The notes beneath the pieces were generated by a model. The model was not told the DNA's origin, made no database searches, and was given only the letters and a program-made list of their open reading frames with translations. Shown here piece by piece: positions 8,638 through 62,695 of a stretch of 64,000 nt of DNA. Made by a program: the position numbers and the translations under genes. The DNA lies in contig JBMDXB010000082.1 of assembly GCA_048594885.1 (NCBI GenBank), forward strand, positions 18,237 through 82,236. The letters are read 5' to 3'. Source of the DNA: Vicinamibacterales bacterium. Its GTDB lineage: Bacteria > Acidobacteriota > Vicinamibacteria > Vicinamibacterales > 2-12-FULL-66-21. Position 1 is the stretch's first letter, and each line of letters begins with the position of its first letter.

Positions 8638-8789
8638 GGAAACGTCGAGGGAGCAGAGATCGCCGAGGGCGCCGAGAGATCCGGCCAACTTGGAGACTGC
8701 AGCCCGTCGGGCCGCGCTTCGCGCGGTGTGGATCGAGACAGCTTGATCCCTCGGCGTCCTTCGCGTCCTCGGCCGCCTCGGCGTTTTCC
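8638..8789. repeat. Imperfect inverted element with ~9-bp tandem units (CGCCGAGGR-like) and a central hairpin
   Basis: Left arm 8638-8681 matches the reverse complement of right arm 8745-8789; central ccgcgc-ttc-gcgcgg. Confidence 0.65.
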
Positions 8790-8890
8790 CGCCGCGCCGT
8801 CGAGTCGTCGTGACGTCGTGTCAGTGGCCGTGCGGCCGGCGCTGAGCGTGTGGAAACACCCGCATCGGATTTGACGGACAATACCGCGCG

Positions 8891-9640
8891 ATGCCCCCAA
8901 TCGAGACGCCCACCTTCACTGCGCTCGACGTCGCCACGCAGGCGCTCGCCGGCGTCCTCTACCTCGCCGTCGGCATCGCGGCGTGGCTGAAGCTGCGGCA
9001 CGACATCCGGACGCGGCTGTTCCTCGGCGTCGCGCTGGCGAACGCCGGTGGGTTCGCGGTGCCGATTGTGGCATGGACGTCCGGCACGAAAGACATCCTC
9101 TCACTCGACCGCGTGCTGCTCGGCACGATGCTCGTATCTATCGTGCTCGGCTCGCTGCTGCTGTTTCACTTCTGCCAGGTGTTCCCGCGGCGCCGGCCCT
9201 GGATCCAGCGATTCCGGCGATGGCTCATTGCCGGCTACGCCGTCGCGCCGCTCGCAACCTTCGGACTCATCGCCGCGGCTCCGTCACAAGAAGACCTGCA
9301 GAACCTTGGCCTGTTTCTGCTGGCACTCGTCGCGATCGGACTTCCGCTGATCCTGCTCGCCGGCATCGTGTTGCCCATCGGCGGCATCATCTCGCTCGTC
9401 AAGAGCTATCGCGACTCGAAGGATCGCGAGACCGCGCGCGTGAGGACACCGCTGCTCTGGTTGCTGGTCAGCCAGATCGCCGGCGGCACGATCGCGTTGA
9501 TCTTCGCGCCTGTGCTCGCGGTGGTTGCGCCGACGCCGGACGTGCAGACGGGCCTGAAGATCGTCGTCGTGGCATTCGGCATCATGACGCCGGCGGCGTT
9601 CGTGCTGGCGGTGTGGAAGTACGGTCTTCCGGAGCCCTAG
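8891..9640 (+). CDS. Hypothetical integral membrane protein (~7 TM)
   Basis: 249-aa hydrophobic ORF with an FHFCQVFP segment resembling 7TM sensor modules. Confidence 0.7.
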   Translation: MPPIETPTFTALDVATQALAGVLYLAVGIAAWLKLRHDIRTRLFLGVALANAGGFAVPIVAWTSGTKDILSLDRVLLGTMLVSIVLGSLLLFHFCQVFPRRRPWIQRFRRWLIAGYAVAPLATFGLIAAAPSQEDLQNLGLFLLALVAIGLPLILLAGIVLPIGGIISLVKSYRDSKDRETARVRTPLLWLLVSQIAGGTIALIFAPVLAVVAPTPDVQTGLKIVVVAFGIMTPAAFVLAVWKYGLPEP

Positions 9641-10992
9641 CGGCGTCGCTGCCCGCTCACCGTAATCAGATACAACACGGCGCCCGCGATGAGCGCACCG
9701 GCGCCGGCGAGCAACTGCAGCTCGGTCGCGCCCGCGAGAATGCTCAGCGAGATGACGATTGCGGCAGCGGGAATGGCCGCGCCGAAGGGGAGTGTGAAGG
9801 TTGCCGGCCGGACCACGCTGGCGAAGGCGGAACGGCGCAGGCGAATCGTGGACCCGCACGTGGCCACGTAGACGAGCAGTCGGCTGACCGCGCTCGCCGC
9901 TGCGAGCGCTGCAAACGTGCCCGACAGCGCGAGCGCGAGCGCCACGCCCGCGGTGAAGAGAATCGCCACCGCCGGCGTCCGAAAGCGCGGATGGACGTAG
10001 CCGAAGAGAGCCGGCAGGTCGCCCTGTTCCGCGAGCGCGTACAAGTTGCGCGATCCGGAGAGCGCCTGCCCGAGGTTGTTGCCGGACGTCGAGACGAGGA
10101 CGCCAATCGTGATGAGCGCGGCACCCATCGGACCGAGGAACAGGCTGGCGGCATCGGCGAGCGGCGTCTTCAACGACGTCTCGAGCGAGGGATGCGTGCC
10201 GAGCGCCACGACCTGCACCAGCACGGTAATCGCCGCAACGATGACGATCGTCATGATCAATGCGAAGGGCACGGCCGTGCGAGGGCTCTTGGCCTCCCCC
10301 GCCGGCACCGGCACGACCTCGTAGCCGCCGAACGCAAAGATCAGTTGCAGCGCGCTCGCGGTCAGCGCCGTCACCGGGACTTCTCCTCCGGGACCGAGCC
10401 GCGCCGGCTCGATGTAGAACAACCCGGCGACGACGAAGATCGCCAGCGGAAGCACTTTGCCGATCGTGAACGCGTTCAGCACGAAGGAGCTCAGCCTGAT
10501 GCCACGCACATTGATGAGCGCGACCGCGGTGATGATCGCGGTGATGAGCGCAGCCCGCGGAAGCCCGCTGGTGAGCCCTGGCCGGTAGAAGCCGACGCCA
10601 TTGACGAGAACGTTGATCACCGCCGCCCAGCTCGCGGCGCGCGTGAACCACAGCATCCAGCCCACTTCGAACGCCGGGAAGCGGCCGAACGCGGCGCGCG
10701 TGTAGAGGTACGAGCCACCGGTGCCTTCGAAGCGGCTGCTCACCTCGGCAAACGACAGCGCGATCAGCAGCGAAGCGAACGCGACGGCGGCGACGAGCCA
10801 CGGACTCCATCCGCCGATCGAAGCGGCCAGCACTCCGGGCAGCGCAAAGACGGCGCTGCCAATCACCTGGTTGACGCCGATGGCTGTGAGATCCCATTTG
10901 CCGAGCTCCCGGCGAAGCGCCGGCGGTGACGAAACAGCGGACGCAGTCGGAGTGTCAGCCACGCGCGGCGTTGTATCATTCTTTGCGGTCAT
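9637..10992 (-). CDS. APC family amino acid permease
   Basis: LRRELG, NQVIGSAVF, GGSYLY, FAFGGYE and HPRFRTP motifs; start at ATG 10992. Confidence 0.9.
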   Translation of the reverse strand: MTAKNDTTPRVADTPTASAVSSPPALRRELGKWDLTAIGVNQVIGSAVFALPGVLAASIGGWSPWLVAAVAFASLLIALSFAEVSSRFEGTGGSYLYTRAAFGRFPAFEVGWMLWFTRAASWAAVINVLVNGVGFYRPGLTSGLPRAALITAIITAVALINVRGIRLSSFVLNAFTIGKVLPLAIFVVAGLFYIEPARLGPGGEVPVTALTASALQLIFAFGGYEVVPVPAGEAKSPRTAVPFALIMTIVIVAAITVLVQVVALGTHPSLETSLKTPLADAASLFLGPMGAALITIGVLVSTSGNNLGQALSGSRNLYALAEQGDLPALFGYVHPRFRTPAVAILFTAGVALALALSGTFAALAAASAVSRLLVYVATCGSTIRLRRSAFASVVRPATFTLPFGAAIPAAAIVISLSILAGATELQLLAGAGALIAGAVLYLITVSGQRRR

Positions 10993-11001
10993 TTCAAACC
11001 C

Positions 11002-12144
11002 GTGCAGCACTCCGACGTCATCGTCAAGCCTCGCGACGTGATGCCGCCGGGCGCCATGACGCTCCCGGCACCCTACTACGTCGATGCGCGCTACTTCGCG
11101 CGCGAAAAGGAGCTGCTGTTCGGCCGCATGTGGGTGTGTGCCGGGCGCCGCGAGCAGATCGAGCCGGCGGGCCGGTTCGTCGTCCGCGAGCTGCTCGGCG
11201 AGAGCATCATCATCACGACGAACGCCGATGGCCGCGTGCAGGCCTTCTACAACGTGTGCCGCCATCGCGGCACGCGGCTGTGCACCGAAGCAGAGGGCGC
11301 GTTCCCCGGCAGCATCCAATGCCCCTACCATGCGTGGACGTACGACCTGAGCGGCCGGCTCATTGGCGCCCCGCACATGGACGAAGTGCCGCACTTCAGG
11401 AAGGACGACTACCCGCTCCACCAGGTGCACGCGGACGAATGGGACGGCCACGTCTTCATCACGCTGGCGGAGGATCCGCCGCCGCTCCGCTCGCAGCTTG
11501 CGGATCTTCCGGACAAGTTCCGCGCGTGGCGGATGCAGGACCTTCGGCTCGGACACCGGATCGTCTACGACATCCAGGCGAACTGGAAGCTGATCGTGCA
11601 GAACTACAACGAGTGCCTGCACTGCCCCAATCTGCATCCGGCGCTGAACAAGCTGTCGCACTATCTGAGCGGCGAGAACGAGCCGCTGCGGCCGACCTAC
11701 ATGGGCGGCCGTATGGATCTGCGGCCAGGAGTGGAGACGCTGTCGATCGACGGCAAGTGCCCGCGGGCGTTGCTACCGGGCGTGGCTGCCGAAGACCTCC
11801 GGCGCGTCTACTACTATGCGATCTTCCCGAACATGTTCCTGAGCCTGCACCCGGACTACATGCTCGTGCACACTCTCTGGCCGCTCGCGCCGGATCGCAC
11901 CATCAACATCTGCGAGTGGCACTTCCATCCGCAAGAGCTCTCGCGCCCCGGGTTCCGGGCAGACGATGCGATCGAGTTCTGGGACATGACGAACCGGCAG
12001 GACTGGCACGTGTGCGAGCTGTCGCAGGCGGGGATCTCGTCGCGCGCGTACACGCCGGGACCGTACTCGAACCGCGAGGAGCTGCTCTACGCGTTCGATC
12101 GGATGATCGTCGCGCTGCACGAAAGCGCGAGCGCCGCGCCGTGA
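11002..12144 (+). CDS. Rieske non-heme iron oxygenase alpha subunit (choline monooxygenase/GbcA-like)
   Basis: NVCRHRG and CPYHAW Rieske ligands; NWK..NYNECLHCPNLHP and QDWHVCE mononuclear Fe site. Confidence 0.9.
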   Translation: MQHSDVIVKPRDVMPPGAMTLPAPYYVDARYFAREKELLFGRMWVCAGRREQIEPAGRFVVRELLGESIIITTNADGRVQAFYNVCRHRGTRLCTEAEGAFPGSIQCPYHAWTYDLSGRLIGAPHMDEVPHFRKDDYPLHQVHADEWDGHVFITLAEDPPPLRSQLADLPDKFRAWRMQDLRLGHRIVYDIQANWKLIVQNYNECLHCPNLHPALNKLSHYLSGENEPLRPTYMGGRMDLRPGVETLSIDGKCPRALLPGVAAEDLRRVYYYAIFPNMFLSLHPDYMLVHTLWPLAPDRTINICEWHFHPQELSRPGFRADDAIEFWDMTNRQDWHVCELSQAGISSRAYTPGPYSNREELLYAFDRMIVALHESASAAP

Positions 12145-12247
12145 CGCCCGCGGCATTCCGCAATCACGGCATCTCTATCGCCGGAATCGCCGCGCACGGC
12201 TGAATGCGACGGCGTCCGACGATCGCGTTCTGGCCCACGTGACGCAG

Positions 12248-12490
12248 CTCACAGGAGAAACAGGGAAGAGGAGAACAAGTTCTTTGCTCGAGATCGATTT
12301 CAGCGTCGTCATCCGCTCGCGATCCCCGACTCGTAGCGCGGCAGGCAACAAAGAGTTCTCCGCTTCTTCGGTGCTCGGAAATGAGAGCCGCTGGACGGGC
12401 AGACGGCCGGCTGCGCGATCAGGAAGGCACGAAGCCACGAAGACACGAAACCAACAGGGCTTCGTGCCTTCGCGCCTTCGTGTCTTCGTG
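12248..12490. repeat. Two intergenic inverted elements: degenerate purine/pyrimidine arms (12248-12385) and octamer arms CACGAAGN x4 / CTTCGTGN x4 (12420-12490)
   Basis: caggaaggcacgaagccacgaagacacgaaa ... cttcgtgccttcgcgccttcgtgtcttcgtg read directly from the sequence. Confidence 0.75.
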
Positions 12491-12640
12491 GGAGCCGCAG
12501 GCTGGCGTGGCCGCGGACTTTTCATGCTGCGGGGTGAGCGGAGCTCATGGTGACTCGTGTGAATGCGAGTCGCAGCAAGCACGAAACCCGGCGCGCCCGT
12601 GCCGCAACGTCGCAACTGACGAGCAGGTCTCGAGCCAACG

Positions 12641-13840
12641 TCACGCAGGCGGGATCGCCGTCTTCCTCTTCGGATTGAAGAACGGCGTGCTCACGACGGT
12701 GGCCGGCACACGATGCCGCACGGATTCCACGGTCACTTCCATCTGCAGCGTCGTGCCTTCGGCGTAGTGCGGCCGCTCGATCGTGGCGAGGGCGATCGTC
12801 TTCTTCAGCACCGGCGACCACGTCGTCGACGTCGCTTTCCCCACCTGACGGCCCGATTTGTAGACCGGAACCGCTACGCGTGAGGCGGTGGCGGCGACGG
12901 TTGGCGCCAGGCCCACAGCGTCGTAGATCTTCTCGACCTGGGTCCAGTCCACTTCGAGGCCGACGACCTGGCGCGCGTGGCCGCGCGCGCGCTCGTCGCG
13001 CAGCGCGCGCTGGCCGACGAACCGCGCCTTGTCTAGGCTGACGAGTCGCCCGAGCCCCATCTCGTACGGCGAGTACATCTGCGACGCGATCATGGCTTTC
13101 TTGCTGCTGAAGAAGTCGACCTCGATGAGCAGCAGGCCGGCCTCGATGCGCGCGACGTCGAGCGCCAGCATGCCGGCCGGCTTGATGTCGAACGCGCGGC
13201 CGCTTGCCATCAGCGCGTCCCACACGCGGACCGCGTCGCGGGCGGGGATCCAGATCTCGTAGCCGAGATCGCCGGTGTATCCCGTCCTCGAGATGTCGAC
13301 GTTGACACCGGCGATCGTCCCGTTCGTGACGCGGAAGTACTTCAGGCTGTCGATGTCCGCTCGAGCGACGGCGCGAAGAAGCCGCGCCGACGTCGGTCCC
13401 TGCAGCGCGAGCGCGGCGACGTCTTCCGAGATGTCCTCGATGTTGACCTCGAGACCCGCCGCGTTCTGCGTGAACCACCGCACACTCGGATCCGCAGCCG
13501 TCCACCGAAAGGTCTGCTCACCGAGTCGCGACACCGTTCCGTCATCGATGACCTTGCCGTGCTCGTCGCACCAGGGCGTGTAGAACACCTGCCCGATCGC
13601 CATCTTCGACACGTCGCGGGTGATCAGGCGATCGACGAGGCGCGCCGCGTCGGGCCCGGTGACCAGGTATTTGAAGAGCGGCGACACGTCGATCAGTGCC
13701 GAGGCGTTGCGGATCGCGTTGTATTCGTGCTCGTGATGGCTCTCGAAGGCGCTGACCGCGTAATAGCCGGACCATTCGCGATAGTTGAGGCTCTCGCACA
13801 GCGCGAACGTCCGCTCGTGGACGGCAGTTCCGATCGGCAT
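12641..13840 (-). CDS. GcvT-like aminomethyltransferase (folate-binding) family protein
   Basis: LIDVSPLFK, GKVIDDG, LQGP, SRTGYTGDLGYEIW and ARIEAG motifs. Confidence 0.9.
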   Translation of the reverse strand: MPIGTAVHERTFALCESLNYREWSGYYAVSAFESHHEHEYNAIRNASALIDVSPLFKYLVTGPDAARLVDRLITRDVSKMAIGQVFYTPWCDEHGKVIDDGTVSRLGEQTFRWTAADPSVRWFTQNAAGLEVNIEDISEDVAALALQGPTSARLLRAVARADIDSLKYFRVTNGTIAGVNVDISRTGYTGDLGYEIWIPARDAVRVWDALMASGRAFDIKPAGMLALDVARIEAGLLLIEVDFFSSKKAMIASQMYSPYEMGLGRLVSLDKARFVGQRALRDERARGHARQVVGLEVDWTQVEKIYDAVGLAPTVAATASRVAVPVYKSGRQVGKATSTTWSPVLKKTIALATIERPHYAEGTTLQMEVTVESVRHRVPATVVSTPFFNPKRKTAIPPA

Positions 13841-13857
13841 GCGCTCAGTCTACCGCC

Positions 13858-13995
13858 TGGAAGGAGCCTCGGCGCACCTGCTCATCAACGCCCCCCCGGC
13901 GCCACCGAGGCCCGCTCGGCGGTCTCGCGATGCCCTCCGTTTCTCCGTTTCTCCGTTTCTCTTTTTCAGCATTCAGCATTCAGCATTCAGCATTG
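13858..13995 (+). repeat. Composite repeat copy 1: ~75-bp core + (CTCCGTTT)n + (CAGCATT)n
   Basis: Direct-repeat similarity to 16540-16701. Confidence 0.8.
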
Positions 13996-14069
13996 ACCGC
14001 CGTAAACCTCCAACCTCCGCTTTCCGTCCAATCGGCGAGGACGGCCACCCCACTCGCGGAGGCTTTCGA

Positions 14070-16466
14070 ATGCTCGCCGAGATCATGCGCGATAGCCACT
14101 ACGCCATCCGTCAACTGCTGAAGAGCCCTGGGTTCGCCGTCGTCGCAATTCTGACGATTGCGCTCGGCACCGGCGCGACCAGCGCGATGTTCAGCGTCAT
14201 CAACGGCGTGCTGCTGCGGCCGCTGCCCTACCCGGAGCCTGACGCGCTCGTGCGCATCAACGAGATCCTGCCGCGTTTCGGCCGCTTCTCCGTTGCGCCG
14301 GCGACGTTTCTCGACTGGCGGTCGCAGAACACGTCGCTCGAGCACACCGTAGCGATGACGTCCGGCTCGGCGGCGCTGATGACGCGCGACGGCCCGGAGC
14401 GCGTAACGAACGCCGCCGTGTCATGGGACTTCTTTCAGATGCTCCGGGTGGCCCCAGCGCTCGGCGGCACGTTCGGCGCCGAGCACGACGTGCCGGGCAA
14501 GACCGACGTCATCGTTTTGAGCCACGGGATGTGGCAACGCCGCTTTGGCGCCGACCCGGCCATCGTCGGGCAGGCCATCACGCTCAACGGCACGCCGATG
14601 ACGATCCTCGGCGTGATGCCGGCCGGCTTCCAGATACCGAGGGACGCCGAGTACTGGACGCCGCTCGCCTTCACCGCGGCGAAGGCATCGCGGGGCGGGC
14701 ATTTCCTCGCGGTCTTCGGCCGTCTGAAGCCCGGCGTGACGGTACAGCAGGCGAACGCCGAGCTGAAATCAGTCAGCGAACGGCTGGCGGCGCAGTATCC
14801 GGACAGCAGCGCCGACGAGTCCGCCGAAGTCGTTCCGGTGCTCGATCAAATCGTCGGCGGCATCCGCGAACCGCTCCTCACGCTGCTCGCCGCCGTCGGC
14901 GTCGTCGTGCTCATCGCCTGCGCGAACGTGGCGAACCTGCTGCTGGTCCGCGCGTCGGTGCGCGAAAAGGAGCTGGCGATCCGCAGCGCCCTCGGCGCCG
15001 GCCGACTGCGAATCGTACGGCAGCTGCTGTGCGAGAGCCTCGTCCTGGCTCTGGCGGGCGGTGCGCTCGGTGTGATGCTCGCGTACGCCGCCATCCCGGT
15101 GATCAAAGAGCTGAGTGCCGGCAGCATTCCCCGCGTCCAGGACGTGTCAATCGACGGCCGGGTCCTGTTCTTCGCCTTCGGTGTTTCGATTGCCACGGGC
15201 CTGGCGTTCGGGCTCGCGCCTGCCTGGCAGGCGTCGCGCAACCGCGAGGCGTCGGCGCTGAAGGAAGGCGGCCGATCGTCGGTGACCAGCGGCCGGTGGA
15301 TGCGCGGCATCCTCCTCGTCGCCGAGGTCGCGCTGTCGATCGTCCTGCTCGTCGGCGCGGCGCTGCTGCTGCGAAGCTTCGCGCGCGTCACGAATATCGA
15401 CCCGGGCTTCCGAGCCGAGCGCGTGCTCGCGTTCCGCGTGGCTCTCCCGCAGACGTCGTACCCCGATCGCGCGGCCCGCCTCGCGTTTTTCGATCGTCTC
15501 CTCACCCGCCTGCGGTCGCTGCCGCAGGTTCGCTCCGCCGCCGCCACGCAGACGCTGCCGATGCGCGGGGACTATTACCTGTCGTTCGAGATCCAGGGCC
15601 GCCCGAAGCCCAGACCCGGAGAGGGCTTTTCGGCCAGCTATCGCGTGGGCAGCCCCGGATACTTCGAATCGCTGGGCGTCCCGCTCAAGCGCGGGCGCAC
15701 GTTCACCGAACGCGACGCCGAGAAGGCGCCGCTGGTGGCGATCATCGACGAAGCGTTCGCGGCGCGGCACTTCCCGGGTGAAGATCCGATCGGCCGCGGC
15801 CTCGACATCGGCAACGGCACCGACGGCTTTTTCGAAATCGTCGGCATCGTCGGCGACGTGCGGCACAGCGGTCTCGACGCGAAGCCGACACCGACGATGT
15901 ACGTGCCGTACACACAGGACGTCTTCGGCTCGCTGTGGGTGCTGGCGCGAACCGACGGGAATCCGGCCAGTCTTGCGCCGCTGGCGCGGCAGACCGTGCG
16001 CGAGATCGACCCGGCGCTGCCCGCCTTTTCGATCGCCCCGCTGCTCGACACCGTCTCGGAATCCGTCGGGCAGCGCCGGTTCAGCCTGCTGCTGCTGGCG
16101 GCGTTCGCGGCCATCGCGCTGGTGCTTGCATCGGTCGGCATCTACGGCGTCGTCGCCTATGCCGTCAGCCAGCGGACGCAGGAGATTGGCGTGCGGATGG
16201 CGATTGGTGCCGAGCGCGGCGACGTGCTGCGACTGATTGTCGGCGGCGGGATGAAACTGGCGCTGGCGGGCGTGGGCATCGGAGTCGCTGCCGCGCTGGC
16301 GCTGTCACGCTATATTGCCACGATGCTGTTCGAGACGGAGCCGTTCGATCCGGTCAGCTACGGTGCCACGATCGCCGTGCTGCTCGCCGTCGCGCTGGCG
16401 GCCTGCTACGTGCCCGCGCGGCGCGCCATGAACCTCGATCCGGTCAGGGCCATCCGGCAAGAATAA
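14070..16466 (+). CDS. ADOP-type duplicated ABC transporter permease (MacB/FtsX domains)
   Basis: KSPGFAVVAILTIALG, LIACANVANLLL and RTQEIGVRMAIGA motifs; GGAGG RBS before ATG 14070. Confidence 0.92.
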   Translation: MLAEIMRDSHYAIRQLLKSPGFAVVAILTIALGTGATSAMFSVINGVLLRPLPYPEPDALVRINEILPRFGRFSVAPATFLDWRSQNTSLEHTVAMTSGSAALMTRDGPERVTNAAVSWDFFQMLRVAPALGGTFGAEHDVPGKTDVIVLSHGMWQRRFGADPAIVGQAITLNGTPMTILGVMPAGFQIPRDAEYWTPLAFTAAKASRGGHFLAVFGRLKPGVTVQQANAELKSVSERLAAQYPDSSADESAEVVPVLDQIVGGIREPLLTLLAAVGVVVLIACANVANLLLVRASVREKELAIRSALGAGRLRIVRQLLCESLVLALAGGALGVMLAYAAIPVIKELSAGSIPRVQDVSIDGRVLFFAFGVSIATGLAFGLAPAWQASRNREASALKEGGRSSVTSGRWMRGILLVAEVALSIVLLVGAALLLRSFARVTNIDPGFRAERVLAFRVALPQTSYPDRAARLAFFDRLLTRLRSLPQVRSAAATQTLPMRGDYYLSFEIQGRPKPRPGEGFSASYRVGSPGYFESLGVPLKRGRTFTERDAEKAPLVAIIDEAFAARHFPGEDPIGRGLDIGNGTDGFFEIVGIVGDVRHSGLDAKPTPTMYVPYTQDVFGSLWVLARTDGNPASLAPLARQTVREIDPALPAFSIAPLLDTVSESVGQRRFSLLLLAAFAAIALVLASVGIYGVVAYAVSQRTQEIGVRMAIGAERGDVLRLIVGGGMKLALAGVGIGVAAALALSRYIATMLFETEPFDPVSYGATIAVLLAVALAACYVPARRAMNLDPVRAIRQE

Positions 16467-16539
16467 CGCTCGTGACCGGCTGCTCCAATCGGCAGTCTAC
16501 GCGCCAGCGCTGATGTAGAATCACGAAACCATGCGCGCA

Positions 16540-16701
16540 TGGAAGGGAGCCTCGGCCCACCTGCTCATCCACGCCCGCCTCGGCGCCAACGAAGCCCGCT
16601 CGGCCGGCCTCTGATCTCCCTCCGTTTCCTCCTCCGTTTTCTCCGTTTCTCCGGTACTCCGTTTCTCTGTTTCAGCATTGAGCATTCGGCATTCAGCATT
16701 G
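16540..16701 (+). repeat. Composite repeat copy 2; the last CAGCATT-G supplies a TTG start for the next gene
   Basis: tggaagggagcctcggcccacctgctcatccacgcc... followed by CTCCGTTT and CAGCATT units. Confidence 0.8.
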
Positions 16702-18282: not shown

Positions 18283-18308
18283 GAGTTAGGAGCTAGGAGC
18301 TAGGAGGA
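18267..18308 (+). repeat. Left arm: (AGGAGYT) x5 + AGGAG
   Basis: aggagtt x3, aggagct x2, aggagga; contains the stop of the upstream gene and the RBS of the next. Confidence 0.95.
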
Positions 18309-18311
18309 GAG

Positions 18312-18726: not shown

Positions 18727-18729
18727 GAC

Positions 18730-20247: not shown

Positions 20248-20260
20248 GATCCGCTTGCCT

Positions 20261-53645: not shown

Positions 53646-54626
53646 CCAGTCAGGGTCGGTGTGGCGGGGGCGACGGGTTACGCCGGCCTCGAGCTGCTGC
53701 GCCGCCTTGCCCGGCATCCCCATACCGACGTGCGCTGCGCGATGGCCTCCGGCGCCTCCGAGGCGAAGCGGCTGCCCGCGTTGAAGCGCATCTGGGACGC
53801 ACCGGTCGAGCCGCTCGACGTGGACCGCCTCGCGGCGGATACCGACGCGGTCTTCCTCGCGCTGCCGGACACGCTTGCTGCCGAGCTGGGTCCCGCGATC
53901 GCCGCGCGCGGTCCGCGCGTGTTCGACCTGTCGGGCGCGTTCCGGCTGCGCGATGCCGCGAGCCGGCAGAGGTGGTATCCGCACACCGGCGACGTCTCCG
54001 TCCCGGTGGCCTACGGACTGCCCGAACGCTATCGCGAGGAGCTGAACGACGCGCAGTTGATCGCGTGCCCTGGCTGCTATCCCACCGCCGCCGTGCTCGC
54101 GCTGCACCCGCTCGTCGCGCAGGGGCTCGTCGAGCCCGGCGTGATCATCGATGCGAAGTCCGGCGTCTCCGGCGCCGGGAAGACGCCGACCGAGCGCACG
54201 CACTTCTCCGAGTGCCACGGCAGCATCTCGGCCTACGGCGTGTTCTCGCATCGGCATGCGGCCGAGATCGAGCAGGAGCTCGGCGTCCCGGTGACGTTCG
54301 TGCCGCATCTCGTGCCGCTCGATCGCGGGATCTTCGAGACGATTTACGCGCGGCTGCGACCCGGCGTCGACGCCCACTCCATCGGCGCGGCGCTGAGTTC
54401 CGCCTACGGCCACTCGCCGTTCGTTCGGCTGACGGGGGCGGATCTGCCGGAGATCAAGCACGTCGCGCACACGAACTTCTGCGACATCGGCTGGAGGGTC
54501 GATCGGCCGGGCGGCCAGCTCGTGATGGCCGTGTGCATCGACAACCTCGTGAAGGGCGCGGCGGGTCAGGCGATTCAGGTGTTCAACGTCGCGTTCGGAT
54601 TCGACGAAACGACCGCGTTGAATTAG
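53631..54626 (+). CDS. argC: N-acetyl-gamma-glutamyl-phosphate reductase
   Basis: GATGYAG, PGCYPT, SGVSGAG and DNLVKGAAGQA motifs. Confidence 0.96.
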   Translation: MNKYSPVRVGVAGATGYAGLELLRRLARHPHTDVRCAMASGASEAKRLPALKRIWDAPVEPLDVDRLAADTDAVFLALPDTLAAELGPAIAARGPRVFDLSGAFRLRDAASRQRWYPHTGDVSVPVAYGLPERYREELNDAQLIACPGCYPTAAVLALHPLVAQGLVEPGVIIDAKSGVSGAGKTPTERTHFSECHGSISAYGVFSHRHAAEIEQELGVPVTFVPHLVPLDRGIFETIYARLRPGVDAHSIGAALSSAYGHSPFVRLTGADLPEIKHVAHTNFCDIGWRVDRPGGQLVMAVCIDNLVKGAAGQAIQVFNVAFGFDETTALN

Positions 54627-54628
54627 CG

Positions 54629-54731
54629 GGATCTCGCGAGGGACAGGAGCAGGGGAGAACGGGAGAACACTTTTCAAGGAAGAGGAAGAGAATGCTCCCC
54701 TTCTCTCTTTCTCCTGTTAATCCGAGATCTC
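54629..54731. repeat. Imperfect inverted element with purine-rich left arm and pyrimidine-rich right arm, inside the arg operon
   Basis: gatctcgcgagggacaggagcaggggagaacgggagaac ... ttctctctttctcctgttaatccgagatc. Confidence 0.6.
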
Positions 54732-54741
54732 ACAATTAGAG

Positions 54742-55545
54742 ATGCTGACGGCACTGAAACTCGGTGGCGAATTACTCGAGGATGGCCCGGCACTGAAGAG
54801 CGCCGCCGCCGCGATCGTTCGCCTCGCGAATCGCCAGCCGGTCGTCGTCGTGCACGGCGGCGGACGCGCTATCGACGCGGAGTTGCGCGCGCGGAACATC
54901 GAGCCGCAGTTCGTCGACGGCCTGCGGATGACTGACGCGGCGACGCTCGAATCGGTGCTGGCGGTGCTCGCGGGGCGCACGAACACGGCACTCGTCGCGG
55001 CGATCGGCGCAGCCGGCGGGCGGGCAGTGGGATTGACGGGCGCTGACGGGTCGATCGGACTGTCGAGCAGGGCGCCGGTGTTCACGGCCGTGTCCGGCGA
55101 CCGGGTGGACCTCGGGCTGGTCGGGCGGCCGGACGGCGCTGACGTGGCGCTGCTTCGCGACCTGCTGCGGCTCGGCTACATCCCGGTCGTCGCGAGCATC
55201 GGCGTGAGCCGCGACGGCGAGCTGCTCAACGTGAACGCGGACACCCTCGCGGGCCACCTGGCAGCGACGCTTGCGGCATCGCGCCTCGTGATCGCCGGGG
55301 GCACGGCAGGCGTGCTGGATACGGAAAACCGCACGATCGCGCGGCTGACGCTGCAGGAGATCGACGTGATGATCGCGGCTGGCACCGCGCACTCCGGCAT
55401 GGTCGCCAAGCTCGCGGCCTGCCGCCGCGCGCTGGCGGCAGGCGTGATGGAAGTGGCGGTCGTATCGGGAAGAAACGTCGAGGATTACGAGACGGCAACA
55501 GGGACGCGGATCGAGGCGGAAGCGCTGCAGACGGATCGGCCATGA
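54742..55545 (+). CDS. argB: Acetylglutamate kinase
   Basis: KLGG, VHGGG, DGLRMTD, NVNAD and GMVAK motifs. Confidence 0.94.
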   Translation: MLTALKLGGELLEDGPALKSAAAAIVRLANRQPVVVVHGGGRAIDAELRARNIEPQFVDGLRMTDAATLESVLAVLAGRTNTALVAAIGAAGGRAVGLTGADGSIGLSSRAPVFTAVSGDRVDLGLVGRPDGADVALLRDLLRLGYIPVVASIGVSRDGELLNVNADTLAGHLAATLAASRLVIAGGTAGVLDTENRTIARLTLQEIDVMIAAGTAHSGMVAKLAACRRALAAGVMEVAVVSGRNVEDYETATGTRIEAEALQTDRP

Positions 55546-56759
55546 ACACGATGACGACGACGGATGTTTTCAATATCGAGGCGGAACACGTCCTCCAGGT
55601 ATACCGGCGCGGGCGCGTCGTCTTCACCAGCGGACGCGGCTGCCGCCTGTTCGACGCTGCCGGGCGCAGCTACCTCGATCTGATTTCCGGCGTCGGCGTC
55701 GCCGCGCTCGGCCACGCGCATCCGCGCATCGCCGACGCCGTCGCCGCGCAGGCGGGCGAGCTGCTGCACACGTCGAACCTGTTCTTCCATCCGCTGCAGG
55801 GCGAAGTGGCGACGCGGCTGGCGCAGCTCTCGGGCCTGCCGCGTGCGTTCTTCTGCAACAGCGGCACGGAAGCCGTCGAGGCGTCGCTGAAGTTCGCGCG
55901 GAAGTTCTGGCGCTCGCAGGGCGAAGCCGCACGCACGCAGTTCGTCGCGCTCGAGCACTCGTTCCACGGCCGGACGATGGGGTCCTTGTCGGTGACGTGG
56001 GACGACCACTATCGCGCGCCGTTCGCACCGCTGGTACCCGACGTCGTGTTCGTGCCGAACGACAACCCGCAGGCGCTGCGGGCCGCCGTGACCTCGAAGA
56101 CGGCGGCGATCATCGCCGAGCCGATTCAGGGGGAAGGCGGCGTCCGTCCGTTGTCCGCCGCGATGGCTGCCGGGATCAACGACGCGTGCCGAGAGACGGG
56201 CGCGCTGCTGATCGCCGACGAGATCCAGTGCGGCCTCGGCCGCACGGGACGTCCGTTCTATTCGGCGGCGCTCGGCCTGAGGCCCGACCTGATGACGGTC
56301 GGCAAGGCGCTCGGCTCCGGCGTGCCGGTGGCCGCCGCGCTGTTCAGCGAACGGGTCGCCAAGGCCGCGGCGTTCGGCGATCACGGCAGCACGTACGGCG
56401 GCAACCTGCTCGCGTGCCGCGCGGCGCTCGTGTTTCTCGAGGAACTGATCGACGGCGGCGTGATGGACAACGTCGCCCGGGTGGGCAAACACATCGGCGA
56501 GAAGCTTCGCGCGCTCGCCGCTTCACGTCCCTTCATCCGCGAGGTTCGCGGCGAAGGGGTCATCTGGGGCATCGAGCTCGATCGTCCGGCGCTCACGGTG
56601 GTCGATGCGGCGCTGGACCTCGGCTTGCTCGTGAATCGCACGGCCGAGACCGTCGTGCGGCTGCTGCCACCGTTCGTGATCACCGAATCCGAGGTGGACG
56701 AGGGAATCGAACTTCTGGATCGCGCGTTCGGGGTCGCGATGTCGCAGGCAAACCGATGA
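55542..56759 (+). CDS. argD: Acetylornithine aminotransferase
   Basis: NSGTEA, SFHGRT, EPIQGEGG, DEIQCG and HGSTYGGN motifs. Confidence 0.94.
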   Translation: MNTMTTTDVFNIEAEHVLQVYRRGRVVFTSGRGCRLFDAAGRSYLDLISGVGVAALGHAHPRIADAVAAQAGELLHTSNLFFHPLQGEVATRLAQLSGLPRAFFCNSGTEAVEASLKFARKFWRSQGEAARTQFVALEHSFHGRTMGSLSVTWDDHYRAPFAPLVPDVVFVPNDNPQALRAAVTSKTAAIIAEPIQGEGGVRPLSAAMAAGINDACRETGALLIADEIQCGLGRTGRPFYSAALGLRPDLMTVGKALGSGVPVAAALFSERVAKAAAFGDHGSTYGGNLLACRAALVFLEELIDGGVMDNVARVGKHIGEKLRALAASRPFIREVRGEGVIWGIELDRPALTVVDAALDLGLLVNRTAETVVRLLPPFVITESEVDEGIELLDRAFGVAMSQANR

Positions 56760-57331
56760 TCACATTCCGTGAAGCCACCGTCAGCGATGCTCCGGCCATC
56801 CATGGCCTGATCAACGCCAACTTGGAGGTCGGGCACCTGCTGCCTCGGACTCTGGACGATGTGACCACACATGCGCGGCGTTTCGTTGTCGCGGAGATGG
56901 ACCGCGCCGTCGTCGCATGCGCGGAGCTGGCGCCGCTCAGCGCGACGGTCGCCGAAGTGCGCTCGCTCGTGGTCGACGAACCGGTGCGCGGCCGCCAGAT
57001 CGGCCCGCGTCTCGTCGCCGAGCTGGCCGACCGCGGCAACGCGCGCGGCTTCGCGACGTTGTGCGCCTTCACGCACCAGCCGTCGCACTTCGTGAAGATG
57101 GGCTTCACGATCGTGCCGCACATGTGGATCCCGGAGAAGATCGCGCACGACTGCACCGGTTGCCCGCTGTTCCGGAGATGCGGCCAGTACGCGGTCACGC
57201 TGCCGCTGCGCGCGGGCGTCGTGCTGCGGCCCGAGCAGCCCGCTGCCGTCATCTATGCAGGGCGCGCGGTCGCGGCGCGGCGGCCCAATGTCGAGCGGCT
57301 GCACCTGAACGGCGACGCGGTGCCGGCGTGA
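56756..57331 (+). CDS. argA: Short GNAT N-acetylglutamate synthase (ArgA-like)
   Basis: LLPRT, AEVRSLVV and PEKIAHDCTGC motifs; ATGA-coupled within the arg operon. Confidence 0.75.
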   Translation: MITFREATVSDAPAIHGLINANLEVGHLLPRTLDDVTTHARRFVVAEMDRAVVACAELAPLSATVAEVRSLVVDEPVRGRQIGPRLVAELADRGNARGFATLCAFTHQPSHFVKMGFTIVPHMWIPEKIAHDCTGCPLFRRCGQYAVTLPLRAGVVLRPEQPAAVIYAGRAVAARRPNVERLHLNGDAVPA

Positions 57332-58542
57332 CGGAGGCGTCCGTTCGGTCGATTGACGGCGGCATCACGGCGCCGGAAGCGTTCCGGGCGTCGGGTGTGT
57401 CGTGCGGCATCAAGGCGAAGGGGCTGGATCTCGCGATCGTCGTGTCCGACGAGATCGCCAGCGCCGCGGGCGTCTTCACCACCAACCTCGCGCAGGCCGC
57501 CCCCATCGTCGTCTCCCGCCGTCAACTGGAGCGCTCGGGCGGCCGCGCCGTCGCGATCGTCGTGAACAGCGGCTGCGCGAACGCCTGTACCGGTGAGGAG
57601 GGCCTCGGGAACGCCTGGGACATGGTGCGCCGCACCATCGACGCGCTGCGCTGCGACGCCGACCACGTGCTCGTCGCCTCGACGGGCGTCATCGGCGTCC
57701 AGCTCGACATGACGAAGGTGGACGCCGGCATCGCGGCGGCGGCCGGCACGCTCGCGCGCGCAGGCGCCCACGACGCTGCGCTCGCCATCATGACGACCGA
57801 CCCGTTTCCGAAGGAGGCGTCGGTCGAAGTGACGTCCGCCGCGGGCACGTTTCGCGTCGGCGGCATCGCCAAGGGCTCCGGAATGATCGAGCCGATGATG
57901 GCGACGATGCTCGGGTTCGTGACGATGGATGCCGCCGTCGAGCCGCCGCTGCTGCAACGCGCGTTGCGCGCCGCGGCCGACGAGACGTTCAACGCGATCA
58001 CCGTCGACGGCGAGTGCTCGACGAACGACTGCGTGTTCGTGCTCGCCAATGGCGCCAGCGGGGTGCGCCTCGGCGATGGCGACTACGACCTGCTCGTCGA
58101 CGCACTCCGCCGTGTCTGCGAGCCGCTCGCCGTCGGCATCGTCCGCGGCGGCGAAGGCGCGACGAAGCTGATCACCGTCAATGTCATGGGCGCGGCGTCG
58201 AAGGAGGATGCGCGGCGCGCGGCGCGGGCGATCGCGAACTCGCCGCTCGTCAAGACGGCCATTCACGGCGGCGACCCGAACTGGGGCCGGCTCGTAGCGG
58301 TCGCCGGCCGCTCGGGATCGGCGTTCGTGCTCGACAAGGCAGCGGTGCACATCGGCCCGGTCGAGCTGTTCAGCAACGGCGCGCCGCACGATGAGCGCGC
58401 TCCCGAGGCGGCCGACTACCTGACGAACACGGACATCGAGGTCGCGGTCGATCTGGGAACCGGCGGGAACGGACAGGCACGCATGTGGACGTGCGACCTG
58501 ACCGCCGAATACGTGCGGATCAACGCGGAATACAGGACCTAA
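57328..58542 (+). CDS. argJ: Ornithine acetyltransferase
   Basis: NSGCANACTG, MTTD, KGSGMIEPMMATML, STND, DPNWGR and NAEYRT motifs. Confidence 0.95.
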   Translation: MTEASVRSIDGGITAPEAFRASGVSCGIKAKGLDLAIVVSDEIASAAGVFTTNLAQAAPIVVSRRQLERSGGRAVAIVVNSGCANACTGEEGLGNAWDMVRRTIDALRCDADHVLVASTGVIGVQLDMTKVDAGIAAAAGTLARAGAHDAALAIMTTDPFPKEASVEVTSAAGTFRVGGIAKGSGMIEPMMATMLGFVTMDAAVEPPLLQRALRAAADETFNAITVDGECSTNDCVFVLANGASGVRLGDGDYDLLVDALRRVCEPLAVGIVRGGEGATKLITVNVMGAASKEDARRAARAIANSPLVKTAIHGGDPNWGRLVAVAGRSGSAFVLDKAAVHIGPVELFSNGAPHDERAPEAADYLTNTDIEVAVDLGTGGNGQARMWTCDLTAEYVRINAEYRT

Positions 58543-58546
58543 GACG

Positions 58547-59533
58547 ATGAGCAGAACAGCGCGCGTGCCGTTTGGGCCGCGGATCGCGGTCCCCTCGCAG
58601 TTCCTCTCGGTGCTCGACTTCGATGACGGGATGCTCGTCGCCTGCCTCGATCTCGCGGCCCAGATGAAAGCGGCGCGCGCGGCCGGCATCGCGCACGACA
58701 AGCCGCTGTCTGGTCTGCACATCGGGCTCCTGTTCGAGAAGCCGTCGCTGCGGACGCGTTCGACGTTCCAGATCGCGGTGCACGAGCTCGGAGGCGACGT
58801 CATCGAGCCGCCCGCCAACGTCGTCCTCGGCGGCCGCGAGACGATCGAGGACGTCGCGCGCAACCTGGAACGCTGGGTGTTCGGCGTCGTGATGCGGACG
58901 TTCGCGCAGTCGAAGCTCGAGGCGTTCGCCGCGGCGGCGCCGCGTCTGAAGGTCGTCAACGCGTTGACCGACGAGGAGCATCCGTGTCAGGCGCTCGCCG
59001 ACTGTCTCACGCTCATCGAAAAGCTGGGGGGTCTGCGGGGCCGCACGATCGCCTACGTCGGCGACGGCAACAACGTCGCGACTTCGCTGGCGCAGGCGGC
59101 GCTGATGCTCGGCGCCAACGTCCGCATTGGATCGCCGCGCGGCTGCGAGCTGCCGGCAACCGTCGTCGACGCCGCTCTTGCCGGTGCGGCGACGGGGGCC
59201 ACGCTCGTCCAGACGAACGATCCGGTCGAGGCGGTGCGCGGCGCCGACGCGGTCTACACCGACGTGTGGACGTCGATGGGCCAGGAGGCGGAGGCCGCTC
59301 GGCGCCGGGCGCTGTTCGTGCCGTATCAGGTGAACAGCGAGCTGATGGCGCACGCGGCGGACGGCGCGCTGTTCATGCACTGCCTGCCGGCGCACCGCGG
59401 CGACGAAGTCACCGACGAGGTGATCGACTCGGGGGCGTCCGTCGTCTTCGATCAGTCGGAGAACCGGCTCCACGTGCAGAAGGCGTTGCTCGCGCTGCTC
59501 GCTGGCCGCTGGCCGCTGATCGCTGATCGCTGA
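58547..59533 (+). CDS. argF: Ornithine carbamoyltransferase
   Basis: FEKPSLRT, HPCQ, DVWTSMG and HCLP motifs. Confidence 0.94.
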   Translation: MSRTARVPFGPRIAVPSQFLSVLDFDDGMLVACLDLAAQMKAARAAGIAHDKPLSGLHIGLLFEKPSLRTRSTFQIAVHELGGDVIEPPANVVLGGRETIEDVARNLERWVFGVVMRTFAQSKLEAFAAAAPRLKVVNALTDEEHPCQALADCLTLIEKLGGLRGRTIAYVGDGNNVATSLAQAALMLGANVRIGSPRGCELPATVVDAALAGAATGATLVQTNDPVEAVRGADAVYTDVWTSMGQEAEAARRRALFVPYQVNSELMAHAADGALFMHCLPAHRGDEVTDEVIDSGASVVFDQSENRLHVQKALLALLAGRWPLIADR

Positions 59534-59551
59534 TCGCTGATCGCTGATCGC
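59501..59551 (+). repeat. Heptamer array GCTGGCC x2 + GCTGATC x5 supplying the argF stop
   Basis: Read directly; TGA 59531-59533 lies inside a unit. Confidence 0.9.
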
Positions 59552-60599: not shown

Positions 60600-60734
60600 A
60601 TCGATTTCGGATTGCCGATCGTCGAGTGCGGATTGACGGGATTGGCGATTGGGGATTGGGATTGAGGGATTGGGGATTGGATTGACGGTTGACGATTGGG
60701 GATTGGATTGACGATTGACGATTGGCGATTGGCG
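60597..60734 (+). repeat. Left arm of a GATTG-based heptamer array (terminal inverted repeat)
   Basis: 60597-60664 matches the reverse complement of 62628-62695 at 66 of 68 positions. Confidence 0.95.
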
Positions 60735-60771
60735 TAGATGCGGTCTCAATCACACGATCGGCGCACGGTTC

Positions 60772-62517
60772 ATGCCTGCCTTGGCATGCCTGGTGTTGGC
60801 AGGCTCCTTACTCCGCGCGGCGCCGCTACGGAACGAGACGCCTCTCACGACGGCTCCGGCCGGACCGTTAACCGTCGTACTGGCACATCGCGACAGCCCG
60901 TACCGTTCACTCGCTCAACAGATTGCCGCGCTCGAGTCCATTCCTGTTGTGGAGTCGCTCACTGAGGCGCTCACACTGGAGCCTGCCTTTCTCCTGTGGG
61001 TGGTTGCACCAACGGAGCTGTCCGACGTAGCCGTCACGGCCTTCAACCGCACGCTCGAACGGGCGTCACCACGTCCTGCGGCAGGGCTCATCACGGCATC
61101 GACGGTCGCTCGCGCCCGCGGTCTCTATGAACGCGCGCGCGTAGCCAGGGGCGACCGGACCGCGACGGTGCTCGGGGAGGACGTCTTCACTGCGGCTGCA
61201 CTCGTCGTGGAGACGACAGCCGACCGCCGACAATCGCGCCCGCTCGCCCGGACAGCAGACATCCTGGGGTTTCTCACGAACGTCGATTACGTCCATTACT
61301 CCGGCCACGGCGGCAACGGCTACTGGCGACCTGTCCCGAACGAGCGATTCGCCGCTCACGATGTGCCGCGCCTAGGGCCGGTCATCGTCAGCACCATGGC
61401 CTGCCAGACGACACGCATGTGGGAAGGCGGTTCGATCGCGCTACGAATGGTCGACGAAGGAGCCGCCGCGTATTCAGGCTTCTATTACAGTCCAATGGCC
61501 GGGTTCCAGATAGGCGAGGAGGACGGGCCGTTCCGCTACAGTTGGCCGCAGGTCCCAATCGGGTACGTCATTGAGGCGATGAACGTCGGGGCTGGGAAAG
61601 GCTACGCGAGGACTCCATTTCATCTGCTCCTCGGAGATCCGCGTATCGCCCTCCGGGAGCAGCCCCCCTGCCGCTTGCTGGACCACGGCGAGTCGGACGG
61701 CGTGCGGCGGGTCTCATGTTCGGATGCACCTGCAGGACTGGTCCCTCTCCGCATTTGGGGAGGAGCCCGGTACGCCTTCGTCGAGATTCCGGGCGTTACG
61801 GCCGTGTGGCGCCAGGAACCGTTCTACAACCGGCGCGTGCAGATGGCGCCGATTGGCGAAGATCTCATCGTCCTCGTGGCCCATCGTGGCGGTGACGTGC
61901 GGATGGCGTTACGGCGCCGCCCACCGCTTGCCTGGCTTGCCGTGGATCCACTGCGAGATGCCCTCGATGATCTCTTGGTCAGCAAGGCTGACCGGCGGCA
62001 CGGCGGGGATGCAATCGCGCTCTTCCTGGCCGCGGTGGCGGCGACAGGCACGGTCCTGCGCGTCAGGCGGAAGCAATTGGGGCGGGCCCATATGGCCGCC
62101 GCCGGCGCACTCGGCGTCGTCGCGGGCCTCCTGCATGCCGCGTACGCGCTCGCGCGGCAGCCGGACGTCGTCGTCGTGGCAAAGGACTTGGTCTTCAGCC
62201 CGCTCGCCGCGGTAGGAACGGGCGTGCTGGCCGCCTGCGGGGCGCTGCTGTTTCAGGCCGCTGCATCGTGGCGCGGACGTCTCCTCGGACTCGTGACCGC
62301 GACATCGGTCGGCTGGATCGGAGGGCTCATCGCCGTGGTCATGGTAAGCATGACGAACAGCGTCATCGCCGCGAGAACGGGCATCGGCGTATGGATCTAC
62401 AGAGCCGACCTCCACCCCTTCATTCTCTCCGCTCTTGGATGCGGCCTCTACGCCCTCGTATTCCTCGCGGCAGCGCGACTGACGGGAAAGGCGCCTATCG
62501 ACTGCAGCGGTCGATAA
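60772..62517 (+). CDS. Putative clan CD (gingipain/C25-like) cysteine peptidase with C-terminal multi-TM domain
   Basis: Signal peptide; YSGHGG (His), TMACQT (Cys) and LLLGDP; ~5 hydrophobic C-terminal helices. Confidence 0.68.
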   Translation: MPALACLVLAGSLLRAAPLRNETPLTTAPAGPLTVVLAHRDSPYRSLAQQIAALESIPVVESLTEALTLEPAFLLWVVAPTELSDVAVTAFNRTLERASPRPAAGLITASTVARARGLYERARVARGDRTATVLGEDVFTAAALVVETTADRRQSRPLARTADILGFLTNVDYVHYSGHGGNGYWRPVPNERFAAHDVPRLGPVIVSTMACQTTRMWEGGSIALRMVDEGAAAYSGFYYSPMAGFQIGEEDGPFRYSWPQVPIGYVIEAMNVGAGKGYARTPFHLLLGDPRIALREQPPCRLLDHGESDGVRRVSCSDAPAGLVPLRIWGGARYAFVEIPGVTAVWRQEPFYNRRVQMAPIGEDLIVLVAHRGGDVRMALRRRPPLAWLAVDPLRDALDDLLVSKADRRHGGDAIALFLAAVAATGTVLRVRRKQLGRAHMAAAGALGVVAGLLHAAYALARQPDVVVVAKDLVFSPLAAVGTGVLAACGALLFQAAASWRGRLLGLVTATSVGWIGGLIAVVMVSMTNSVIAARTGIGVWIYRADLHPFILSALGCGLYALVFLAAARLTGKAPIDCSGR

Positions 62518-62524
62518 TCTGAGA

Positions 62525-62695
62525 TCGCCAATCGCCAATCGCCAATCGTCAATCCCAATCGCCAATCCCAATCGCCAATCGTCAATCCAATCGCCAATCG
62601 TCAATCATCATTCCAATCAGCAATCGCCAATCCCAATCCCCAATCGCCAATCCCGTCAATCCGCAATCGACGATCGGCAATCCGCAATCGATCTA
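62525..62695 (-). repeat. Right arm of the heptamer array (CAATCGC/CAATCCC/CAATCGT)
   Basis: Inverted relative to 60597-60734; ends on the TAG of the S9 gene. Confidence 0.95.

Follow-up and report, generated by a model that had tools for sequence, protein, structure and literature searches.

Four-helix-bundle genes and inverted heptamer arrays in the operon spacers of a Vicinamibacterales bacterium

The intervening sequences of 23S rRNA genes in Coxiella, Leptospira and other bacteria have complementary termini that pair in a stem, and the loop carries an open reading frame (ORF) of the PF05635 family. In the Coxiella case, RNase III cuts the stem around the S23p ORF, tandem heptamers whose number varies between strains lie just upstream of the ORF, the ORF itself is described as decaying, and the origin and function of rRNA intervening sequences and of the S23p protein are still called unclear (PMC4990558; this and the other papers cited here are drawn on in excerpt). 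We found the same parts in a 64,000-nt stretch of a Vicinamibacterales genome (hereafter the window; positions 18237-82236 of contig C158 in a 7.46-Mb assembly of 176 contigs and 66.8% G+C, termed G000), where a PF05635 four-helix-bundle (4HB) gene lies between two inverted arrays of 7-nt units at 18267-18726. Unlike the rRNA intervening sequences, the elements described here lie in spacers of protein-coding operons, have long arrays as arms (reaching ~170 nt within the window and 336 nt in other parts of the genome) and have dispersed gene-less sister copies; and unlike the decaying Coxiella ORF, the 4HB gene of the window is under purifying selection.

Heptamer repeats are known from a second line of work, which has described the short tandemly repeated repetitive (STRR) sequences of heterocystous cyanobacteria, GGGAATC in Xanthomonas (where 70-75 convergent inverted pairs occur) and TAACTGA in Beggiatoaceae and cyanobacteria. 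The same heptamer recurs in distant lineages with 'no mechanism evident', polymerase slippage has been proposed for the heptamer excess (as cited in these papers), and the main texts, in the excerpts at hand, name no gene associated with the repeats (PMC4692102, PMC4679880). The arrays described here resemble this class, as excerpted, in their 7-nt units, over-representation, intergenic placement near ORF ends, conserved sites and variable length; unlike the STRR-type heptamers, they are tied to PF05635 cassettes. Genes of this family have been noticed inside cas operons (PMC3936711). Our literature search, whose scope excluded subscription journals and supplements, found no paper that ties PF05635 genes to flanking heptamer arrays beyond the single Coxiella description. 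In the literature covered, heptamer repeats and rRNA intervening sequences are treated separately, with no link drawn between them.

A third comparison is with MITEs (miniature inverted-repeat transposable elements) and with repetitive extragenic palindromes and the mosaic elements that they form (REP/BIME), a group that also includes the dispersed palindromic intergenic repeats called Correia elements. As in MITEs and REP/BIME, short copies that lack a gene are numerous, their terminal inverted repeats are conserved, and a few longer, gene-bearing copies have the same termini; positions are intergenic and co-transcribed. Unlike MITEs, the elements have no target-site duplication, their arms are tandem arrays and their partner gene is not a known transposase. 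Our reading is that the array loci of the window probably belong to a single system, made up of palindromic elements of the intervening-sequence type that live in operon spacers and have gene-less derivatives resembling MITEs. The full element is ~0.45-0.9 kb long and consists of a 4HB gene (PF05635, Avd-related) between two inverted short-unit arrays, with units almost always of 7 nt and occasionally of 6, 8 or 9 nt; both the unit and the conserved outer termini are specific to the element family. The majority of copies in G000 lack the gene and are either single arms or array hairpins whose loops measure 0-60 nt, and they are intergenic, typically starting a few bases from a stop codon.

The 4HB cassette and its gene-less kin

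The cassette at 18267-18726 lies between two FAD-oxidoreductase genes and not within a 23S or 16S rRNA helix (a search of G000 for a 23S rRNA gene came back blank, since that gene was not assembled). Its gene (18312-18686, plus strand) encodes a 124-aa protein that matches PF05635 (E 3.9e-33, 114.3 bits against a cut-off of 33.8) and TIGR02436 (E 1.4e-30, 105.7 bits against a cut-off of 24). The closest solved relative is XCC0516 (PDB 2GSC, E 2.9e-19), and the nearest titled record, at 73% identity, comes from an Acidobacteria subgroup-6 metagenome-assembled genome. The 5' arm (18267-18306, plus strand) consists of AGGAGTT/AGGAGCT heptamers repeated 5.7 times with 96% matches in Tandem Repeats Finder (TRF), and the 3' arm (18671-18726, plus strand) of eight perfect AGCTCCT units, the reverse complement of the 5' array. 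Folded as RNA, the two arms pair in an uninterrupted 40-bp stem around the ORF (-238 kcal/mol, z = -7.05). The 5' arm holds the stop codon of the upstream oxidoreductase gene (TAG, 18280-18282), and ahead of the 4HB start lies a Shine-Dalgarno-like run; the last 4HB codons and stop (18684-18686) are encoded by the 3' arm, which ends 3 nt ahead of the ATG of the downstream oxidoreductase gene (18730). An earlier reading of this DNA, the original prediction, had held that arms supply stops to their neighbours and that cassettes enter operons between genes without disrupting them, and the cassette bears out both.

Comparison with orthologues revealed that the 4HB gene is under purifying selection, with proportions of nonsynonymous and synonymous differences (pN and pS) of 0.07-0.22 and 0.58-0.79 and a ratio of the corresponding rates (dN/dS) of about 0.07-0.09 where dS could be estimated. 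Between genera, the 4HB proteins encoded at this site share 66-70% identity. The window's copy is therefore old and vertically kept, and the visible direction of change across the genera compared at this site (below) is loss. The stretch was found in four sequencing runs of one study, all of DNA, with no RNA run among those listed. Their contigs showed no joint that removes the 4HB cassette within 8000-21000, but they are short, of low depth and broken at arrays, and so carry no information on excision, expression or polymorphism in the population; many loose ends fall at the TTCAGCA array of this region.

G000 contains 11 PF05635 matches in all. Short-unit arrays flank 10 of them on both sides, each copy with a different unit, and the flanking units are plainly reverse complements in nine of these ten (the copy on contig C157 is unclear). 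The eleventh copy is a truncated gene with one arm. All 11 have protein-coding neighbours by crude ORF calls. These arms also match the commonest arrays of the genome: among the 25 commonest array families, 11 match the arm of a 4HB cassette exactly, 7 match within one mismatch and 7 have no match. In the cassette on contig C73, both the termini and the arm length are the same as those of the gene-less hairpins of the TTCAGCA family.

A second family, named GATTG here, allowed filled and gene-less copies to be compared by their terminus. This 43-nt terminus, which looks non-repetitive, occurs at 60 places with 88-100% identity and forms 16 complete inverted pairs. Thirteen of these are gene-less (236-573 bp), one encloses a 4HB gene (881 bp, contig C35), one is a 2087-bp element in the window and one encloses an IstB/DnaC-like ORF. 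GATTG elements often start 3 nt after a stop codon. Because filled and gene-less copies have termini in common, they stand to one another as a gene-bearing element stands to its miniature derivatives, and the GATTG and TTCAGCA families both combine terminal inverted repeats common to many short copies with a longer gene-bearing copy, as MITEs do. PF05635 is the sole conserved cargo gene, and no Pfam transposase domain was matched. The family has no known enzymatic activity, and a literature search on a possible link to HEPN-type nucleases turned up no relevant paper.

Across the whole genome, TRF reported 752 rows of period 7, compared to 18 of period 6 and 224 of period 8, an excess of period 7 that is beyond chance. 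Merging gave 709 period-7 arrays. The original prediction had described the units as unrelated in sequence, which does not fit the finding that 76 canonical heptamers account for all 709 arrays and that the four largest families hold 124, 89, 64 and 54 of them. It had also expected arrays to be placed non-randomly relative to genes, and this was confirmed: 408 of the 709 lie wholly outside ORF calls and 162 have their midpoint inside one (86 in the first tenth, where starts are over-extended, 29 in the last tenth and only 33 mid-gene), whereas 335 of 401 period-12 arrays lie inside genes. Furthermore, 267 of 707 arrays start between -20 and +10 nt of a gene's stop codon. Our crude ORF caller, whose calls take up 76% of the genome, places 5' ends too far out and overlooks genes with low G+C at third codon positions (GC3), so its calls were used only for stop-codon positions and for the contrast between coding and non-coding DNA. 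Stop codons do occur within the units, as predicted (47% of arrays), which is only a mild enrichment over the 40% found for composition-matched random heptamers.

Same-unit arrays less than 6 kb apart form 237 inverted and 89 direct pairs, and in 150 of the inverted pairs the gap is no larger than 100 nt (151 hairpins when counted again). Arm polarity is fixed within every family (for example, in 35 of 35 and 23 of 23 hairpins). The copies are stereotyped dispersed elements with conserved outer ends, degenerate interiors and stereotyped arm lengths.

These properties bear on an explanation in which no element family exists at all. The arrays would arise in place, by slippage with a preferred 7-nt step and by quasipalindrome copying at terminator-like spacers, and the 4HB genes would be independent selfish genes that survive best in hairpin loops and play no role in making the arrays. 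Slippage has already been proposed in the heptamer literature, as cited in the excerpts of PMC4692102 and PMC4679880, and perfect outer units around degenerate inner ones are what in-place growth would also give. Against an in-place origin stand, however, a non-repetitive-looking terminus repeated at 60 places, a polarity and an arm length that are set family by family, and filled and empty copies with identical termini.

Orthologous spacers, relatives and other phyla

The original prediction called for presence/absence polymorphism at orthologous loci, and we found it in several spacers. The spacer between the two FAD-oxidoreductase genes could be compared in 23 genera. It is filled in seven (four read directly, three judged by coordinates at contig ends), two genera have both arms with an internally deleted gene between them (251 and 224 nt), two have abutting arms only (52 and 53 nt), and 12 have short spacers of -1 to 44 nt, among them a genome of the same genus (G001) whose 27-nt spacer retains traces of the unit. 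Thus, a filled cassette has decayed to a hairpin at this site, which is in keeping with the earlier claim that filled, empty and one-armed loci are states of the same thing.

At other spacers, the units themselves change. The convergent spacer between an alcohol dehydrogenase (ADH) gene and a peptidase S9 gene, which in G000 holds the 2087-bp GATTG element, is plain in two genera, holds a simple hairpin in one and holds heptamer-array hairpins with three different units in three more. The ornithine-carbamoyltransferase (OTC)-ADH, permease-gcvT and gcvT-oxidoreductase spacers likewise carry different units in different genera. Such differences at one and the same spacer, as well as the variation in unit copy number between relatives at one site, can also be counted in favor of arrays that arise in place.

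PF05635 matches are present in 34 of 41 related genomes (G000 included). For each locus we aligned the upstream flank to the reverse complement of the downstream flank, and took an inverted-flank score of at least 30 as the threshold. This threshold was reached by 18 of 20 loci from 19 related genomes, compared to 3 of 40 controls. A wider scan, with one genome per species, found 598 relatives; complete flanks were available for 70 of the 80 best loci, and 56 of these 70 scored at least 30 while none of 130 positional controls did. The arm period in these 56 loci is 7 in 50, 8 in five and 6 in one, and the loci come from at least ten phyla, including Acidobacteriota, Nitrospirota, Planctomycetota, Verrucomicrobiota, Chloroflexota, Cyanobacteria, Bacteroidota and Patescibacteria. 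The original prediction had named a four-helix-bundle protein as a mere candidate; the association of gene and arms in G000, in the related genomes and in the wider scan makes it central.

Protein and arm unit also vary together. Across 51 loci, protein distance and unit distance are correlated (Mantel r = 0.16), and none of 2000 permutations gave a value as high. A unit is common to 51% of the pairs that are less than 35% apart in protein distance, including pairs that span phyla, compared to 3-4% of distant pairs. This co-variation across phyla again counts against an in-place origin, as does the distribution of arrays among relatives. In samples of 57-100 kb from each of 16 relatives, the seven without a PF05635 match had no period-7 array in 647 kb of similar G+C content, while the nine with a match had 54 in 900 kb, at densities of 1 to 15 per 100 kb (9.5 in G000). 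The restriction of arrays to 4HB-bearing genomes is a presence/absence contrast and not a proven cause, and the failure of array density to track 4HB copy number fits arrays that arise without the gene. Taking both sides together, we consider it unlikely that the arrays arose in place.

The association extends to cultured cyanobacteria and to plasmids. In the cyanobacterial genome that carries one of the scanned loci (L068), the cassette's unit in triplicate has 119 matches, spread over about a dozen loci, compared to none for the reversed control. Forty-one plasmid records, mostly from Nostoc and Calothrix, hold a relative of the 4HB gene, and 18 of the 41 are typed as conjugative. Direct reading of conjugative plasmids of Nostoc punctiforme PCC 73102 and Trichormus variabilis ATCC 29413 revealed the same anatomy, with the gene preceded by purine-rich heptamers and followed by their complement, within rows of co-directional genes. 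The phage collection that we searched contained no PF05635 relative of the window protein.

Other array loci of the window and candidate enzymes

Short-unit arrays are present at all nine loci for which they had been predicted, by TRF and by direct reading, and what these loci have in common is, as predicted, architecture rather than sequence. The three loci described as empty inverted pairs are all true inverted repeats, of which two are degenerate. The hairpin at 12420-12490 has 33-nt arms around a 5-nt loop and is built of 8-nt units of the GAAGCCAC type and the CTTCGTGC type (inverted arrays at 12423-12453 and 12460-12490, 3.9 copies each); it belongs to a dispersed 8-mer family. A near-identical copy of this hairpin and its flanks (12380-12530) lies on contig C144 of G000 (4409-4476), either because the segment was duplicated or because a second strain left redundant sequence in the assembly. 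The 8-nt arm units of two planctomycete 4HB cassettes from the wider scan (L125 and L130, in Phycisphaerae-type records) resemble those of this hairpin. The pair at 8640-8786 has 9-nt-type units in 42-nt arms (8640-8681 and 8745-8786) that lie 63 nt apart and are 76% complementary. The hairpin at 54643-54717, between argC-like and argB-like genes, pairs a purine-rich with a pyrimidine-rich arm (54643-54675 and 54685-54717, 33 nt each), again at 76% complementarity.

This last hairpin lies in a row of arginine-biosynthesis genes at 53631-59533 (argC-like 53631-54626, argB-like 54742-55545, argF-like 58547-59533) whose spacers carry array hairpins or single arms, with different units in the same spacers of other genera. 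At the end of the row, a single array of 8.4 CGCTGAT units (59493-59551, plus strand) overlaps the 3' end of the ornithine-carbamoyltransferase gene and is a member of the fourth commonest family (54 arrays).

Four loci had been called single arms. The imperfect heptamer array at 45380-45417 (plus strand, 5.4 copies, 80% matches) is indeed single, with no inverted partner in 45330-45520. Nearby, a TrbI/VirB10-like protein is encoded at 45546-46574 (plus strand), and the Trichormus plasmid cassette (L257) is also one gene away from a TrbI/VirB10 gene, which may be coincidence. Two others turned out to be the copies of one ~140-nt direct duplication, both on the plus strand. The left copy is a half element at 13935-13994 with a CTCCGTTT 8-nt array followed by a TTCAGCA array that ends in the family terminus; the right copy, at 16619-16700, has an 8-nt and then a 7-nt array and lies directly upstream of the first FAD-oxidoreductase gene. 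The duplicated segment (13860-13995 and 16540-16701) comprises a small conserved upstream ORF (ending ...ARSAGL), the arrays and a TAGAAT-like promoter box, and it brackets a MacB/FtsX-type permease gene (13785-16466 region) that is absent from this spacer in five relatives. Rfam gave no match in the whole window at gathering thresholds, so the conserved leader upstream of the FAD-oxidoreductase gene is not a known riboswitch.

The remaining locus is the GATTG element of the ADH-S9 spacer. Its 5' arm (60603-60734, plus strand) starts 3 nt past the TAG of the ADH-like gene, matches the 43-nt family terminus at its outer end and contains an array of 14 copies of a 7-nt unit (60640-60734). Its 3' arm (62524-62689, plus strand) carries 24.6 ATCGCCA-type heptamers (TRF array 62524-62690), inverted relative to the 5' array, and has an outer terminus that is 100% identical to that of the family and abuts the stop of the convergent S9 gene. 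Between the arms, at 60739-62517 on the plus strand, an atypical cargo encodes a 592-aa hypothetical protein that is weakly peptidase-C25-like. Its GC3 is 0.75, compared to a genome median of 0.86, and its 45 database relatives are all hypotheticals. The gene is absent from 40 relatives; a metagenome scan with the single protein gave no confirmed relative, and a scan with alignment A3 gave 16 loci that encode homologues. We rejected it as a recurrent cargo and take it for a one-off, since none of the 40 relatives has it and none of the 16 metagenome loci is flanked by heptamer arrays. The ORF has the look of a foreign gene that came to sit inside a hairpin element, because the termini of its arms are those of a family with a 4HB-bearing member. 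The other GATTG pair with atypical contents, at 17061-18350 of contig C174, surrounds a 315-aa ORF on the minus strand that we take, from its translation, to be an IstB/DnaC-like ATPase.

The original prediction had gone further and proposed generic hairpin cassettes with microsatellite arms and varied cargo, moved in trans, with HUH transposases of the REP-associated tyrosine transposase (RAYT) type as candidates. The two GATTG members with non-4HB genes are in line with this, as is the absence of the 592-aa gene from relatives, and Y1-transposase genes do occur in the genome (five, two of them in the window). However, inverted and direct same-unit pairs are equally frequent at gene-sized spacings (37 and 39 at 800-3000 nt), which means that 'filled' pairs, as a class, are at chance expectation beyond 800 nt, and only PF05635 is enriched as cargo. 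None of the 16 metagenome loci with 592-aa homologues has array flanks. Position lends RAYT mobilisation no support either, because none of the five Y1-transposase genes has a heptamer array within 800 nt, and at least 15 array families with different termini would have to be served by about five such genes. The RAYT-like gene at 6438-7088 (minus strand; Y1_Tnp 40.4 bits, NCBIfam REP_Tyr_transpos 75.8 bits, under the cut-off of 80) sits among ordinary REP palindromes (6476-6619 and 7205-7235), which are ~25 nt long and GC-rich with a GTAG head and a 48-nt tandem period. REP and heptamer hairpins are alike in being intergenic palindromes; the REP cores are another class of sequence. The second Y1_Tnp-like gene, at 39963-40457 (plus strand), is followed by about three copies of a different palindromic repeat (40440-40560). 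We therefore regard cassettes with varied cargo moved by RAYTs as very unlikely.

Mobility through RNA had also been suggested. Here the 4HB protein would act as an Avd-like cofactor of a reverse transcriptase, the hairpin RNA would be copied to DNA and reinserted, and arrays would result from template slippage. The 4HB protein belongs to the same superfamily as Avd of diversity-generating retroelements (E 5e-8 to bAvd, E 1.9e-10 to the NCBIfam Avd model), and PF05635 is, according to the excerpt of PMC10053308, the commonest neighbour family of these retroelements. Unlike in Avd systems, no reverse transcriptase was found in the genome: PF00078 had no match in an assembly estimated at 96% complete, despite 709 arrays and 11 4HB genes, and the cassettes examined hold the 4HB gene alone, with no reverse-transcriptase gene. 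A reverse-transcribed route is thus very unlikely in this organism.

Proposed mechanism and significance

Several observations weigh against the preferred reading of one family-based system of intervening-sequence-type elements. Seven of the 25 commonest array families, including the 8-mer family of the 12420-12490 hairpin, have no 4HB partner within one mismatch in the 176-contig assembly, and a match between arms and array families would also be expected if the gene invaded existing hairpins in proportion to their number. The 16 complete GATTG elements lack a target-site duplication; their flanks continue the palindrome (...ATC before the element, GAT... after it) instead of forming direct repeats. 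The cassette of the window is itself one of a very small family, with one other exact array, and shows no recent mobility of its own. The correlation of protein with unit is weak in size at r = 0.16, and the sampled genomes are kin, which means that the presence/absence contrast in array density overstates their independence. Density does not scale with 4HB copies, since three relatives with six (G035), seven (G011) and four (G031) copies each have 1 array per 100 kb. A change of unit between genera at the same spacer fits repeated insertion but also rapid concerted drift in place. Finally, we know of no transposition mechanism for a 4HB protein, and cleavage of the arms by RNase III is a proposal drawn from analogy.

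We propose the following sequence of events for intervening-sequence-type elements in operon spacers. The arms would pair in the transcript and RNase III would cut the stem, as it cuts rRNA intervening sequences built of the same parts; an RNase III gene is present in G000. Cleavage would free the 4HB message and separate the flanking cistrons, with the 5' arm providing both a stop for the upstream gene and a ribosome-binding site for the 4HB gene. Families would multiply as copies of DNA, by a process that depends on the hairpin and either requires the cognate 4HB protein or takes guidance from it, with no classical transposase or reverse transcriptase, and array length would then drift by slippage. 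We would class the elements as intervening-sequence-type elements that lie outside rRNA and have miniature derivatives; their spread, if it depends on the protein, would be new.

A broader possibility is that hairpin mobile elements with the PF05635 4HB gene as their signature make up a pan-bacterial class, which spreads with neither a classical transposase nor a reverse transcriptase and in which each protein lineage recognises its own 7-nt unit. The rRNA intervening sequences, the STRR sequences and the heptamers of Xanthomonas and Beggiatoaceae would all be products of such elements, and conjugative plasmids would be among the vehicles between phyla. We put this forward tentatively, as an idea that may well prove too broad. 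It is directly testable, because the cultured and tractable strains Nostoc punctiforme PCC 73102 and Trichormus variabilis ATCC 29413 carry cassettes on plasmids.

The link between cassette and arrays may account for the abundance of seven-base repeats in some bacteria. If heptamer repeats and intervening sequences are one system, two old puzzles would have one testable answer. A common hypothetical family, annotated as 'four helix bundle protein', would gain a role, and a spread of DNA without a known transposase would be open to experiment. Hundreds of intergenic features per genome would come under an annotation rule, and the long perfect stems that lie between cistrons, just past stop codons, would be likely to shape the processing of operon RNA.

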